Positions 3,967-33,293 of a stretch of DNA of 64,000 nt are shown one piece after another. Position 1 is the first letter of the stretch. Each line of letters opens with the position of its first letter. The stretch comes from Escherichia coli. GTDB taxonomy: Bacteria > Pseudomonadota > Gammaproteobacteria > Enterobacterales > Enterobacteriaceae. The translations under genes and the position numbers were made by a program. The notes under the pieces are model-generated. The model saw nothing but the letters and a program-made list of their open reading frames with translations. It did no database searches and was not told the DNA's origin. The DNA lies in assembly GCF_050320075.1 (NCBI RefSeq), contig NZ_CP190018.1, one strand, 5' to 3'.

Positions 3967-4221
3967 ATGGAATGCCGTCCGGGTTGCGGGGCGTGTTGCA
4001 CTGCCCCTTCAATTTCCAGCCCTATTCCCGGTATGCCAGATGGCAAGCCCGCCAATACGCCCTGCATTCAGCTTGATGAACAGCAACGCTGTAAAATTTT
4101 CACCTCGCCACTGCGACCGAAAGTTTGTGCGGGCTTACAAGCCAGCGCTGAAATGTGCGGTAACTCGCGTCAGCAGGCAATGACCTGGCTTATCGATCTG
4201 GAAATGCTGACCGCGCCTTAA
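3967..4221 (+). CDS. yeiW: Cysteine-cluster protein YeiW (UPF0153)
   Basis: 84-aa protein [22 protein letters not shown]... inside the 128-aa ORF; Cys-rich. Confidence 0.8.
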
Positions 4222-5399
4222 ACATCTTTAATCCGCAGTAAGCAAAACAGAGTGGCGATAATCATCACCATCGCAAACCAGAACACAGCGTGATAATTCC
4301 AGATCTCGGCGACGATGCCCGCCACTGATCCTGCGATGATCCAGCCCACGCGCGAAGTGTTGGTATAGAGCGTGGTGGCTGAACCTGCCTGACCGGGCAT
4401 CAAATCCTGAAAATAGAGCATCCCGATGCCGCCCAGAATGCCAATAAAAATAGCATTAAGCAGCTGCAAGCCCAACAGAATGACAGGTGAATGCGCCATC
4501 AGCATTCCTGCGTAAAAACAGACGCCACCCACGGCAGCAACGCGCATTAAGAAACGCTTACCCAAACGTTTGGCGAAATATCCGGCAATCAACATGGTCG
4601 GGATTTCCAGCCCGGCGGCGGTCCCCATCATCACACCGGCCAGTTTCTCGGGAAGATGCAGTTCGTTGATAATAAATAGCGGCATGTTGATGATGTACAG
4701 GCTGTTCGAGCCCCACATCAATGTACAAATGACAAACAGCAGCAGCGTATCGCGACGGTTACGGCGCGGCGCTTCAACCGTGCCGGTCGCCAGTGGAAGT
4801 TCTTTTTGCATCGACGGTAAAAACAGCCACACCATCACACCGCAAACAATAAACGCTACCGCTGCGCTCAGATACATTACCGTAAAGCTGAAACCCATCG
4901 CTAAGGCATAAGCCAGCGGCGGGCCAATGACCCATGCCAGTGAAACCTGAGCGCGTAAAAAAGAGCTGAACATCACCGCTTCACGTCCGGTTTTGTCAGC
5001 ATGTTCACGGGCGAGGGCAAACATTTGCGGGTTAGCAGTCGAGCCAAAGCTGCTAAGAAAGACGCCAACGAATAGCAAAACAAAGTAGTTGCGATTCCAG
5101 GCAAAAAGAGTGCAGGCCAGCACGCCTAACAGGCAGCAAAAGACAATCAGCGATTTGCGATCGCCGCGCTTATCAGAGCGCCCGGCGAGAAACTGACTTA
5201 CCAGAATCCCAATGACAGCGCTGCCGGTAAAGAAGAATCCCACCATCGCCGGGCGGGCATGTACTTCATCAGTAAGAAAAATACTGAGTGTCGGGGTTTG
5301 TAGAGCGCCCGCAATACCGGTGAGAAAGGCAACGATTAAAAACGCCATCGAGGTCAGGTCAAACGATTTCGCGCTGGAGACTGCGGGGGAGTTATGCAT
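4218..5399 (-). CDS. setB: Sugar efflux transporter SetB (MFS)
   Basis: 393-aa multi-TM ORF; synteny next to fruB. Confidence 0.9.
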
Positions 5400-5665
5400 G
5401 CTGGTCGATCACTGGAAGAGGAAGACGCGGAGTTTACGCTGCTTGTCAGAAAATAAACAGACAGCGAAATCAAAAGCGCCACGAATAATCAAAATGCCAT
5501 TTCACTGTTGCTGATTGGCTGCTGACGCTGCTGAAATGAAATTGCTGATAACGGATTTTCCCATCAGCAATTAGGAAAAATGACAAAAAATTGTGCAGCA
5601 CATCAAACTTTTGCTCATAACTTTACGGCTTTCCTTGCGTGCTGAAACAGAAGTATTATGCTTTC

Positions 5666-5680
5666 TTGAAACGTTTCAGC
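5666..5680. promoter_or_regulatory. Candidate Cra (FruR) operator, distal site in the fruB promoter region
   Basis: ttgaaacgtttcagc, near-perfect TGAAACGTTTCA palindrome; a TATTAT -10-like hexamer sits about 10 bp upstream. Confidence 0.55.
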
Positions 5681-5731
5681 GCGATCTTGTCTTTAACCCT
5701 AAGCCAGGTTGGCGCTTTTTTTCTCATAGAA

Positions 5732-5752
5732 GCTGAATCGTTTCAATTCAGC
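5732..5752. promoter_or_regulatory. Candidate Cra (FruR) operator, proximal site just upstream of the fruB RBS
   Basis: gctgaatcgtttcaattcagc palindrome followed by RBS agagaggag and ATG at 5767. Confidence 0.6.
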
Positions 5753-5766
5753 AAGAGAGGAGAACT

Positions 5767-6897
5767 ATGTTCCAGTTATCCGTACAGGACATCCATCCGG
5801 GCGAAAAGGCCGGAGACAAAGAAGAGGCGATTCGCCAGGTCGCTGCGGCGCTGGTGCAGGCCGGTAATGTAGCTGAAGGCTACGTCAATGGCATGCTGGC
5901 GCGCGAACAGCAAACCTCTACGTTCCTCGGCAATGGTATTGCTATTCCACACGGCACTACCGACACCCGCGATCAGGTGCTGAAAACCGGCGTTCAGGTA
6001 TTTCAGTTCCCGGAAGGCGTCACCTGGGGTGACGGCCAGGTAGCGTACGTGGCGATCGGTATTGCTGCCAGCTCGGATGAACATTTGGGCCTGCTACGCC
6101 AGCTGACCCACGTACTGAGCGATGATTCCGTTGCTGAACAACTGAAGTCAGCAACAACAGCAGAAGAACTTCGCGCATTGCTGATGGGCGAAAAGCAGAG
6201 TGAGCAGCTGAAGCTCGACAACGAAATGCTGACGCTGGATATCGTCGCCAGCGATCTGCTGACTCTTCAGGCGCTGAACGCTGCTCGTCTGAAAGAGGCG
6301 GGGGCAGTTGACGCCACTTTCGTCACCAAAGCCATCAATGAACAACCGCTGAACCTCGGACAGGGTATCTGGCTGAGCGATAGCGCCGAAGGCAATCTGC
6401 GTAGCGCGATTGCGGTAAGCCGTGCGGCAAATGCTTTTGATGTGGACGGCGAAACGGCAGCCATGCTGGTGAGTGTGGCGATGAATGACGATCAGCCCAT
6501 TGCGGTTCTAAAGCGTCTCGCTGATTTGTTACTCGACAATAAAGCTGACCGCTTGCTGAAAGCGGATGCGGCAACGTTGCTGGCGCTGCTGACCAGCGAT
6601 GATGCGCCGACCGACGACGTGTTAAGCGCGGAGTTTGTGGTGCGCAATGAACACGGCCTGCATGCTCGTCCAGGTACCATGCTGGTCAATACCATTAAAC
6701 AATTTAACAGTGATATTACCGTGACAAACCTTGATGGCACCGGCAAACCGGCAAACGGACGTAGTCTGATGAAAGTTGTGGCACTTGGCGTTAAGAAAGG
6801 TCATCGCCTACGCTTTACCGCCCAGGGTGCAGATGCTGAACAGGCGCTGAAAGCCATTGGCGACGCTATCGCTGCTGGTCTTGGGGAGGGCGCATAA
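5767..6897 (+). CDS. fruB: Fructose PTS multiphosphoryl transfer protein FruB (EIIA-FPr)
   Basis: 376-aa ORF; stop overlaps fruK start (TAATG). Confidence 0.93.
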
Positions 6898-7835
6898 TGA
6901 GCAGACGTGTTGCTACTATCACCCTTAATCCGGCTTATGACCTTGTTGGTTTCTGCCCGGAAATTGAACGCGGCGAAGTGAACCTGGTGAAAACCACCGG
7001 TCTGCATGCGGCGGGTAAAGGCATCAACGTGGCCAAAGTGTTAAAAGACCTGGGAATTGATGTCACTGTTGGCGGCTTCCTCGGTAAAGACAATCAGGAT
7101 GGTTTTCAGCAACTGTTCAGCGAGCTGGGCATTGCCAACCGTTTCCAGGTTGTACAGGGGCGCACCCGAATTAACGTTAAGCTGACGGAAAAAGACGGCG
7201 AAGTGACCGACTTCAACTTCTCGGGTTTTGAAGTCACTCCCGCCGACTGGGAACGCTTTGTGACTGATTCTCTGAGCTGTCTCGGTCAGTTCGATATGGT
7301 CTGTGTCAGCGGAAGCTTACCGTCAGGCGTCAGCCCGGAAGCGTTCACCGACTGGATGACTCGCCTGCGTAGTCAGTGTCCTTGCATTATCTTTGATAGT
7401 AGCCGTGAAGCGTTAGTAGCAGGTTTGAAAGCGGCACCGTGGCTGGTGAAACCTAACCGCCGCGAGCTGGAAATCTGGGCAGGCCGTAAACTGCCTGAAA
7501 TGAAAGATGTGATTGAAGCTGCACATGCGCTACGTGAACAAGGTATCGCGCATGTCGTTATTTCACTGGGTGCCGAAGGCGCGCTTTGGGTTAATGCCTC
7601 CGGCGAATGGATCGCCAAACCACCGTCAGTCGATGTCGTAAGCACCGTTGGCGCAGGGGATTCTATGGTTGGTGGCCTGATTTATGGCTTGCTGATGCGT
7701 GAATCCAGTGAACACACACTGCGTCTGGCGACAGCTGTTGCAGCCCTGGCGGTAAGTCAAAGCAATGTGGGTATTACCGATCGTCCGCAGTTGGCCGCAA
7801 TGATGGCGCGCGTCGACTTACAACCTTTTAACTGA
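6897..7835 (+). CDS. fruK: 1-phosphofructokinase FruK
   Basis: 312-aa ORF; PfkB-family GAGDSMVGG motif. Confidence 0.93.
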   Translation: MSRRVATITLNPAYDLVGFCPEIERGEVNLVKTTGLHAAGKGINVAKVLKDLGIDVTVGGFLGKDNQDGFQQLFSELGIANRFQVVQGRTRINVKLTEKDGEVTDFNFSGFEVTPADWERFVTDSLSCLGQFDMVCVSGSLPSGVSPEAFTDWMTRLRSQCPCIIFDSSREALVAGLKAAPWLVKPNRRELEIWAGRKLPEMKDVIEAAHALREQGIAHVVISLGAEGALWVNASGEWIAKPPSVDVVSTVGAGDSMVGGLIYGLLMRESSEHTLRLATAVAALAVSQSNVGITDRPQLAAMMARVDLQPFN

Positions 7836-7851
7836 CAGCAGGAGAGGCATA

Positions 7852-9543
7852 ATGAAAACGCTGCTGATTATTGACGCTAATCTCGGTCAGGCACGCGCCT
7901 ATATGGCGAAGACCCTGCTGGGCGCGGCGGCGCGAAAAGCAAAACTGGAAATCATCGACAATCCGAACGACGCTGAAATGGCGATTGTTCTCGGTGATTC
8001 CATCCCGAACGACAGCGCGCTGAACGGTAAAAATGTCTGGCTGGGCGATATTTCCCGGGCAGTTGCGCACCCTGAGCTGTTCCTGAGTGAAGCCAAAGGC
8101 CATGCGAAACCTTACACTGCGCCGGTCGCTGCGACAGCACCGGTTGCCGCCAGCGGTCCGAAACGCGTAGTTGCGGTGACTGCTTGCCCGACTGGCGTAG
8201 CACACACCTTTATGGCGGCTGAAGCCATTGAAACCGAAGCGAAAAAACGTGGCTGGTGGGTGAAAGTTGAAACCCGTGGTTCGGTTGGCGCGGGTAATGC
8301 AATCACCCCTGAAGAAGTAGCCGCAGCAGATCTGGTGATTGTGGCGGCAGATATTGAAGTGGATCTGGCGAAATTTGCTGGTAAACCGATGTATCGCACC
8401 TCTACCGGTCTGGCGCTGAAGAAAACCGCGCAGGAACTGGATAAAGCGGTTGCTGAAGCAACGCCGTATGAACCGGCGGGCAAAACTCAAACAGCGACCA
8501 CTGAAGGTAAGAAAGAGAGTGCAGGCGCTTACCGTCACTTGCTGACGGGCGTCTCTTACATGCTGCCGATGGTCGTTGCAGGTGGTCTGTGTATCGCGCT
8601 TTCTTTTGCTTTTGGTATCGAAGCGTTTAAAGAGCCGGGTACGTTGGCTGCGGCGCTGATGCAGATTGGTGGTGGTTCAGCCTTTGCGTTGATGGTGCCG
8701 GTACTGGCAGGTTATATTGCCTTTTCCATTGCCGATCGTCCGGGTCTCACGCCGGGTCTGATTGGCGGTATGCTGGCGGTCAGCACCGGTTCTGGCTTCA
8801 TTGGCGGTATTATTGCGGGCTTCCTGGCTGGTTACATTGCGAAGTTAATCAGTACGCAATTGAAACTGCCACAGAGTATGGAGGCGCTGAAACCGATTCT
8901 GATCATTCCGCTAATTTCCAGTCTGGTGGTCGGTCTGGCGATGATCTACCTGATCGGTAAACCGGTTGCTGGCATTCTCGAAGGGTTGACTCACTGGCTG
9001 CAGACCATGGGGACTGCGAATGCGGTTCTGCTGGGGGCGATCCTCGGTGGCATGATGTGTACTGACATGGGCGGTCCGGTAAACAAAGCAGCGTACGCGT
9101 TCGGTGTGGGTCTGCTGAGTACTCAAACCTATGGCCCGATGGCGGCGATTATGGCGGCAGGTATGGTGCCACCGCTGGCAATGGGCCTGGCAACAATGGT
9201 GGCGCGTCGTAAATTCGACAAAGCGCAGCAGGAAGGTGGCAAAGCCGCTCTGGTATTGGGACTGTGCTTCATTTCGGAAGGTGCAATTCCGTTTGCTGCC
9301 CGTGATCCGATGCGAGTGCTGCCGTGCTGTATCGTGGGTGGGGCGCTGACTGGCGCAATCTCAATGGCGATTGGTGCGAAACTGATGGCACCGCACGGTG
9401 GTCTGTTTGTTCTGCTGATCCCTGGCGCGATTACGCCGGTATTGGGTTACCTGGTAGCCATTATTGCCGGTACGCTGGTGGCGGGTCTGGCCTATGCCTT
9501 CCTGAAACGTCCGGAAGTGGACGCAGTAGCGAAAGCAGCGTAA
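7852..9543 (+). CDS. fruA: Fructose PTS EIIB'BC component FruA
   Basis: 563-aa ORF with a soluble N-terminal domain followed by a multi-TM domain. Confidence 0.93.
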   Translation: MKTLLIIDANLGQARAYMAKTLLGAAARKAKLEIIDNPNDAEMAIVLGDSIPNDSALNGKNVWLGDISRAVAHPELFLSEAKGHAKPYTAPVAATAPVAASGPKRVVAVTACPTGVAHTFMAAEAIETEAKKRGWWVKVETRGSVGAGNAITPEEVAAADLVIVAADIEVDLAKFAGKPMYRTSTGLALKKTAQELDKAVAEATPYEPAGKTQTATTEGKKESAGAYRHLLTGVSYMLPMVVAGGLCIALSFAFGIEAFKEPGTLAAALMQIGGGSAFALMVPVLAGYIAFSIADRPGLTPGLIGGMLAVSTGSGFIGGIIAGFLAGYIAKLISTQLKLPQSMEALKPILIIPLISSLVVGLAMIYLIGKPVAGILEGLTHWLQTMGTANAVLLGAILGGMMCTDMGGPVNKAAYAFGVGLLSTQTYGPMAAIMAAGMVPPLAMGLATMVARRKFDKAQQEGGKAALVLGLCFISEGAIPFAARDPMRVLPCCIVGGALTGAISMAIGAKLMAPHGGLFVLLIPGAITPVLGYLVAIIAGTLVAGLAYAFLKRPEVDAVAKAA

Positions 9544-25257: not shown

Positions 25258-25273
25258 TGTGACTCGATTCACG
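25258..25273. promoter_or_regulatory. Candidate CRP site upstream of galS
   Basis: tgtga ctcgat tcacg, near-consensus TGTGA-N6-TCACA. Confidence 0.45.
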
Positions 25274-26402: not shown

Positions 26403-26418
26403 TGTGAGTGATTTCACA
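26403..26418. promoter_or_regulatory. Candidate CRP site of the mgl promoter
   Basis: tgtga gtgatt tcaca, perfect TGTGA-N6-TCACA. Confidence 0.6.
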
Positions 26419-33045: not shown

Positions 33046-33293
33046 AATTATTTAGAGTATAAATATTGCGTGCTGATATTAAGGCTATGCGCGTGGGGAA
33101 ATTTAAACTGTGAAAGGATTCACAAATAGCTGTGGTTCAGAATGTTATATCCGCAGCTTATTGAGTGAAGTAATAATTATTCTCAATAATTAACAGAAAA
33201 GAGAAAATATTAACGATAGAAAATAAGATAAACAATCAGGTAATGGTGCCAACTTACTGATTTAGTGTATGATGGTGTTTTTGAGGTGCTCCC

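Follow-up and report, generated by a model that had tools for sequence, protein, structure and literature searches.

The fruBKA operon is a textbook target of Cra (FruR) that makes and consumes fructose-1-phosphate, the inducer of this global regulator, and its regulatory region holds two operators for the repressor. We examined this locus in a stretch of 64,000 nucleotides of Escherichia coli DNA (hereafter, the window). We consider it very probable, at roughly 0.93, that the region is the fruBKA promoter-operator with two Cra operators, referred to here as O1 and O2, plus an intrinsic terminator encoded between them. Repression of fruBKA by Cra via O1 and O2 and induction by fructose-1-phosphate are established textbook knowledge, and the Cra sites serve here only as a check of annotation frame and strand; what is new is confined to a conserved terminator in the leader and to the constant spacing that separates it from the distal operator.

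Locus and comparative sample

The setB-fruB spacer of E. coli occupies positions 5400-5766 of the window, and a search of 5426 complete E. coli genomes found the region 5400-5770 once each, with 95-100% identity, in 5413 of them. The flanking genes and the features discussed below are collected in Table 1. Both PF00359 and PF00381 were present in FruB homologues, and a protein homologue search with FruB returned only near-identical E. coli and Salmonella proteins, with no distant lineages. Comparative loci were gathered, with one genome per species, by means of a degenerate pattern matching codons 1-10 of fruB; because the pattern addresses the fruB coding sequence, the sample is unbiased towards operators. 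The yield was 120 loci, nearly all of them labelled Enterobacteriaceae, and 116 leaders (about 115 species; L002-L121) had enough upstream sequence for analysis. Published coordinates were mapped by the relation genome = 2263495 + (5767 - window position), which was anchored on a Term-seq entry.

Table 1. Features of the setB-fruB spacer and its surroundings, in window coordinates.
Feature	Position	Strand	Remarks
setB	4218-5399	minus	Flanks the spacer on the left
CRP-like site TGTGCAGCACATCAAA	5592-5607		Common to the divergent setB and fruB promoters
-35 element TTGCGT	5635-5640	+	Conserved position; putative function
Isolated Cra half-site GCTGAAAC in the promoter spacer	5641-5648	+	Exact GCTGAAWC
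Overlapping -10 candidates TATTAT (5654-5659) and TATGCT (5657-5662)	5654-5662	+	Read from the sequence
Cra operator O1, promoter-proximal	5665-5680		CTTGAAACGTTTCAGC; equals the published operator; predicted to overlap the start at about A5670
Leader RNA hairpin, terminator stem-loop	5678-5716	+	Fold and covariation
T7 tract (5716-5722) and mapped RNA 3' end C5723	5716-5723	+	Term-seq
Cra operator O2, promoter-distal, 5' UTR	5732-5747		GCTGAATCGTTTCAAT; matches the published operator and the RegulonDB site
O2 outer arm ATTCAGC	5746-5752	+	Complementary to GCTGAAT 5732-5738; hairpin in the MFE fold
Shine-Dalgarno (SD) GAGAGGAG and fruB start codon	5755-5769	+	SD 5755-5762, ATG at 5767
fruB	5767-6897	+	ORF list; RefSeq annotation of another E. 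coli genome, same position
fruK	6897-7835	+	ORF list and RefSeq annotation of the identical region
fruA	7852-9543	+	ORF list and RefSeq annotation of the identical region
fruBKA regulated operon	5767-9543	+	

Two Cra operators in the fruB promoter region

The original prediction described a near-perfect palindrome at 5666-5680 and a second one immediately before the fruB ribosome-binding site, and read them as two sites of Cra repression. The first, TTGAAACGTTTCAGC, turned out to be better than was claimed, with a core TGAAACGTTTCA (5667-5678) that is a perfect 12-bp palindrome, and the second, GCTGAATCGTTTCAATTCAGC, was found at 5732-5752, ahead of the SD. The 16-bp Cra consensus has been quoted as GCTGAAnC/GnTTCAGC (PMC7897506). 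The O1 16-mer CTTGAAACGTTTCAGC agrees with this consensus (GCTGAAnCGnTTCAGC) at 14 of 16 positions, as does the O2 16-mer (5732-5747). Exact matches to TGAAWCGWTTCA in the 64-kb window numbered two, namely TGAAACGTTTCA in O1 and GCTGAATCGTTTCA (5732-5745) in O2, against 0.03 expected from shuffles, and none of 100 shuffles reached two. When one mismatch was permitted, four matches were found against 0.66 expected; the 16-mer consensus with up to three mismatches gave two against 1.22, and is not discriminating when used alone. O1 and O2 were also listed together by a repeat search, both as direct repeat D2 and as inverted repeat I1.

The identity of the two operators is supported by the literature. 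Two sites in the fru regulatory region of E. coli, O1 TGAAACGTTTCA and O2 TGAATCGTTTCA, have been reported to be bound cooperatively (PMC4050194, citing Ramseier et al. 1993), and the fruB proximal and distal sites have been given as TTCTTGAAACGTTTCAGC and GAGGCTGAATCGTTTCAA, respectively (PMC11157272 Table 1 and preprint, from Ramseier 1993). It should be kept in mind that site naming runs in opposite senses among these papers, as O1/O2 or as promoter-proximal/distal (PMC4050194, PMC11157272). Compared with the published operators of E. coli and Salmonella fruBKA (Ramseier et al. 1993; PMC4050194, PMC11157272; RegulonDB), the window has the same cores, TGAAACGTTTCA and TGAATCGTTTCA, in the same gene context; these cores sit within TTCTTGAAACGTTTCAGC and G(A/G)GGCTGAATCGTTTCAA, and the Cra-fruBp site of RegulonDB maps to 5729-5746, that is, onto O2. 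No difference of substance was seen; only position 5730 differs, which is A in the window and G in K-12 MG1655 (ATAGAAGC vs ATAGAGGC) and lies one base 5' of the O2 16-mer, yet within the 18-bp RegulonDB site. The strain behind the window is accordingly other than K-12. Comparison with known Cra sites, which had been suggested as a check, thus gave identical sequences for both operators, and repression of fruBKA by Cra through two sites is supported.

O2 resembles a perfect 16-mer plus five extra bases, GCTGAATCGTTTCA[ATTCA]GC, and its outer dyad is GCTGAAT-N7-ATTCAGC. In the MFE fold of the RNA, this dyad forms a hairpin of 7 bp, and the TTCAGC of its outer arm is highly conserved. The pairs of this arm with GCTGAAT never co-vary, and the outer dyad is therefore assignable to neither RNA nor DNA. 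A long-range pairing of O1 with O2 was proposed by RNAalifold and was rejected, as it involves invariant columns only, with no covariation, and similar palindromes always pair. It is very improbable that the palindromes are chance matches, sites of CRP or another LacI-family protein, or 5'-UTR RNA hairpins only: although the fold of the outer dyad, the RNAalifold pairing and the fact that the one-mismatch core matches elsewhere in the window are CRP-type sites would suit such a reading, chance would produce just 0.03 exact matches, no covariation at all was seen in the O1:O2 pairing or in the outer stem of O2, and published binding data already contradict it.

Conservation and spacing of the operators

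Both operators were found in the whole comparative sample, with GAAACGTTTCAG (O1) and GCTGAAWCGWTTCA (O2) in 116 of 116 enterobacterial leaders, and O1 GAAACGTTTCAGCG was invariant across 63 aligned leaders. The O2 core occurs as TGAAACGATTCA (67 leaders), as its reverse complement TGAATCGTTTCA (44 leaders) or as TGAATCGATTCA (5 leaders), and in none of the 116 does it take the O1 form TGAAACGTTTCA. The starts of the O1 and O2 cores are 66 or 67 bp apart in 113 of 116 leaders. A more distant locus, L231, whose FruB is 72% identical and which has a setB-like MFS neighbour, carries O1 CCTGAAACGTTTCAGC and O2 GCTGAAACGATTCCTT exactly 67 bp apart and lacks a T-run between them, which argues that operator spacing is constrained independently of the terminator.

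This strict spacing of 66-67 bp is consistent with the reported cooperative binding of Cra, and corresponds to about 6.3 helical turns, which is not a whole number. The arrangement recalls dual-operator repression by other members of the LacI/GalR family (lac O1/O2/O3 and gal OE/OI), with which it shares palindromic 16-mers, one operator at the promoter and one downstream, cooperativity (reported for Cra) and a strict inter-operator distance. Cra is not known to carry the tetramerisation helix of LacI. FruK has been proposed as a possible bridge of Cra dimers (PMC11157272).

Promoter elements and predicted transcription start

Upstream of O1, a CRP-like site has two mismatches to TGTGA-N6-TCACA; 27 such matches were found in the window against 24 expected, so the match is not significant alone. 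Across 115 upstream regions from enterobacteria, its TGTG and TCA hardly vary, and the fruBKA-setB spacer has been reported to contain a single CRP site, with fruB promoter activity being lower in a crp mutant (PMC3105977). Elsewhere in the window, two perfect CRP consensus sites were noted, TGTGAGTGATTTCACA at 26403-26418 and TGTGAAAGGATTCACA at 33109-33124; the latter, and a one-mismatch CRP-type site at 25258-25273, double as one-mismatch matches to the Cra core pattern.

The sequence CTTGC at 5634-5638, which covers part of the putative -35 element, does not vary between genera, and its distance to the O1 core downstream is 32 nt throughout. As for the -10 element, the original prediction pointed to TATTAT beside O1, and this sequence is present at 5654-5659, but its assignment as the -10 is doubtful, because it is Escherichia-specific and would leave a spacer of 13 bp to the -35 TTGC. 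The overlapping TATGCT, with 16 bp, fits better as the candidate -10. In most genera, nAnACT is found at 5658-5663 with a 17-bp spacer, where E. coli has ATGCTT. On the basis of the -10 spacing and by analogy with Vibrio cholerae, the transcription start is predicted to lie at about A5670, the sixth base of O1. Such a position would agree with the binding of FruR downstream of the fru start site that has been described for enteric bacteria, in which fructose-1-phosphate is the inducer (PMC7897506). No match to the fruB start was found in a Cappable-seq supplement, and a simple sigma-70 promoter scan returned nothing at the fruB -10 region. A simple terminator scan likewise missed the hairpin described below, which has an imperfect stem and a large loop; both omissions are explained by scan criteria that exclude weak -35/-10 pairs and imperfect long-loop hairpins.

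The promoter spacer further contains an isolated Cra half-site, whose right half is without a match and which Escherichia, Salmonella and Citrobacter retain, though as GCTGAAG only. It is possibly a weak or vestigial third site; we did not count it as a third operator, since it is unconserved outside this clade.

A conserved intrinsic terminator between the operators

The original prediction overlooked a terminator-like hairpin and T-run that fill the 51 bp between the two operators. The hairpin has an MFE of -14.2 kcal/mol, with two internal mismatches in the E. coli stem, and is followed directly by U7. In an alignment of 63 distinct leaders (A1), both sides were changed in six of nine stem pairs, and none of 500 shuffles reached the observed covariation; 88.9% of stem cells were paired, compared with 31-56% when the 3' partner was slid. 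Wobble cells in the stem were G.T in 96 cases and A.C in 10, and this excess argues that the hairpin has been selected on the fruB sense strand, i.e., in the RNA. Across 109 distinct leaders, the mean MFE was -15.5 kcal/mol with a mean z of -3.0, and 98 of them had at least five T in the 8 nt after the stem. The T-tract sequence TTTTTTCTCA is conserved. The fold of the whole 5' UTR, in comparison, was not significant (z -1.5).

The Term-seq data published by Adams et al. 2021 (PMC7815308, supplements 1 and 3) contain an RNA 3' end at MG1655 2263539(-). [quoted passage not shown] The reads at this position amounted to 218,310 in LB at OD 0.4 and 431,335 in a second condition (PMC7815308), although such counts reflect RNA stability besides termination efficiency. 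This 3' end was given a Rho score of 0.26 ('No') and an intrinsic-terminator score of 9.6, with a threshold of 3.0 (PMC7815308). It is entered three times in each of two supplementary files; its 'characterized element' column is empty, and fruB is absent from the main text (PMC7815308). By its fold, its compensatory changes and its Rho-insensitive 3' end, the hairpin with U7 qualifies as an intrinsic terminator, and we infer that it is the cause of the 3' end at C5723. It is strongly supported that transcription from the fruB promoter largely stops at this terminator and so yields a leader RNA of about 54 nt.

The element shares with other intrinsic terminators and attenuators of E. coli 5' UTRs (Adams et al. 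2021) the hairpin and U-tract, the Rho-independent 3' end and an abundant short RNA, and differs from them in that it lies between two repressor operators. A classical attenuator (riboswitch, leader peptide or antiterminator) was considered and rejected: the fruB leader, which contains no ATG, shows no sign of an antiterminator structure, a leader peptide or a ligand-binding element, and the stem begins only about 8 nt into the RNA. An Rfam search of the leader gave no family, returning only meaningless weak matches to eukaryotic families. No described fruB leader element was found in a literature search that covered mostly papers outside subscription journals, so that an earlier mention is possible; the conserved terminator between the operators is apparently uncharacterised.

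Fixed distance between the T-run and the distal operator

Of the 92 enterobacterial leaders with a run of at least four T, 86 have exactly 9 nt between the end of this run and the start of O2. The same geometry was found in L207, a fruR-fruB spacer resembling that of V. cholerae and recovered from a metagenome, in which T7 follows a hairpin of -15.6 kcal/mol and is separated by 9 nt from the distal operator. In L236, L239 and L240, a T-run lies 8 nt before a GCTGAA operator; the hairpin before the T-run is weak in L236 and L239 and absent in L240. No operator-terminator arrangement was found in L234, L238 or L241, and the terminator present in L241 probably belongs to the upstream gene. A terminator adjoining the distal operator is thus widespread, but not universal, as L231 is without a T-run.

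The V. cholerae locus allows a closer comparison. [quoted passage not shown] A 107-nt RNA from the V. cholerae fruB leader, IGR4, has been reported and left unexplained, with processing being suggested (PMC8088597); measured from the published start, IGR4 would end at the start of the T-run in L207. Thus, the V. cholerae fruB promoter (PMC7897506; PMC8088597) resembles that of E. coli in having an operator over the transcription start (at the sixth nucleotide of the operator, the E. coli start being a predicted one), a distal operator in the 5' UTR that comes after a hairpin, T7 and a gap of 9 nt, the production of a short leader RNA and an upstream CRP site. It differs in that a complete third operator sits between its -35 and -10 and mediates activation of transcription by FruR-fructose-1-phosphate; at the equivalent place E. 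coli has the half-site only, and Cra acts as a repressor. The E. coli half-site lies about 24 bp upstream of the centre of its O1, and O1 of V. cholerae fruB lies 22 bp upstream of its O2. Furthermore, the V. cholerae leader is 239 nt long, compared with about 97 nt in E. coli, and the divergent neighbour there is fruR.

An RNA such as IGR4 raises the possibility that the main role of the hairpin and U-tract is to produce a stable sRNA of about 54 nt, derived from the 5' UTR and with a function of its own (e.g., Hfq-binding), and that attenuation of fruBKA is a by-product. The very high 3'-end signal (218,310-431,335 reads) despite low flanking coverage, the terminator hairpin followed by 7 U and the V. 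cholerae analogue, the 107-nt IGR4 (PMC8088597), would all agree with such an sRNA. We nevertheless regard it as unlikely, as the RNA begins with no more than the transcribed half of O1, whose conservation is explained by Cra binding, the loop is unconserved, no target is known, and overexpression of IGR4 was without effect on Cra levels in V. cholerae (PMC8088597).

Proposed mechanism

For the region as a promoter-operator with an internal terminator, we propose that a CRP-assisted sigma-70 promoter, with -35 TTGCGT and a -10 within TATTATGCT, would start transcription at about A5670. As established in the literature, Cra, a dimer of the LacI/GalR family, binds both operators; at O1, over the predicted start site, it would block initiation or promoter escape, and O2 lies in the 5' UTR, 20 nt before the ATG. 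Fructose-1-phosphate lowers the affinity of Cra and thereby induces the operon. The hairpin and U7 probably end a large share of transcripts at C5723 and release the leader RNA of about 54 nt. Because U-tract and O2 are separated by a constant 9 nt, a polymerase at the U-tract would meet O2-bound Cra with its front edge. The front edge of an elongating polymerase is roughly 13-18 bp ahead of its active site. With the active site on the U-tract (5716-5723), the front edge would fall on the left half of O2, and O2-bound Cra may, hypothetically, be functionally coupled to termination.

This geometry leads to the tentative suggestion that O2 is chiefly a roadblock, at which bound Cra would hold the polymerase on the U-tract, at the moment when the hairpin has newly formed, and make a leaky terminator efficient, so that fructose-1-phosphate would relieve both the block at O1 and the attenuation. 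The distance of 9 nt in 86 of 92 leaders and its recurrence as 8-9 nt in L207, L236, L239 and L240 are consistent with such coupling, as is the abundance of the short leader RNA in LB and at least one further condition without added fructose; in V. cholerae, expression in glucose is slightly higher when O3, the distal operator, is mutated (PMC7897506). Other observations speak against a roadblock: C5723 is a normal position for an intrinsic 3' end, and the polymerase must enter O2, contrary to a tight roadblock; O1 and O2 occur in L231 without a T-run; and the literature ascribes the role of the second site to cooperative binding (PMC4050194). Further alternatives are that the terminator is a constitutive leak filter, that it shields O2-bound Cra from displacement by polymerase, or that the T-run serves instead as bent DNA, the last being suggested by L240, which has the T-run and its spacing without a hairpin.

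Whether the elements form a single operator-terminator-operator module, common to Enterobacteriaceae and Vibrio, in which roadblock-enforced termination would make a short leader RNA while the operon is off, is doubtful at present, although possible. If true, such a module could account for the IGR4 RNA of V. cholerae and for the puzzling role of the distal operator in that species. The present analysis draws attention to a short RNA already present in published data, apparently without prior discussion. Coupling of the terminator to O2 would give the second operator a concrete job, and with a leader terminator adjoining the distal operator, regulation would acquire a step after initiation, on top of what is always presented as simple operator repression.
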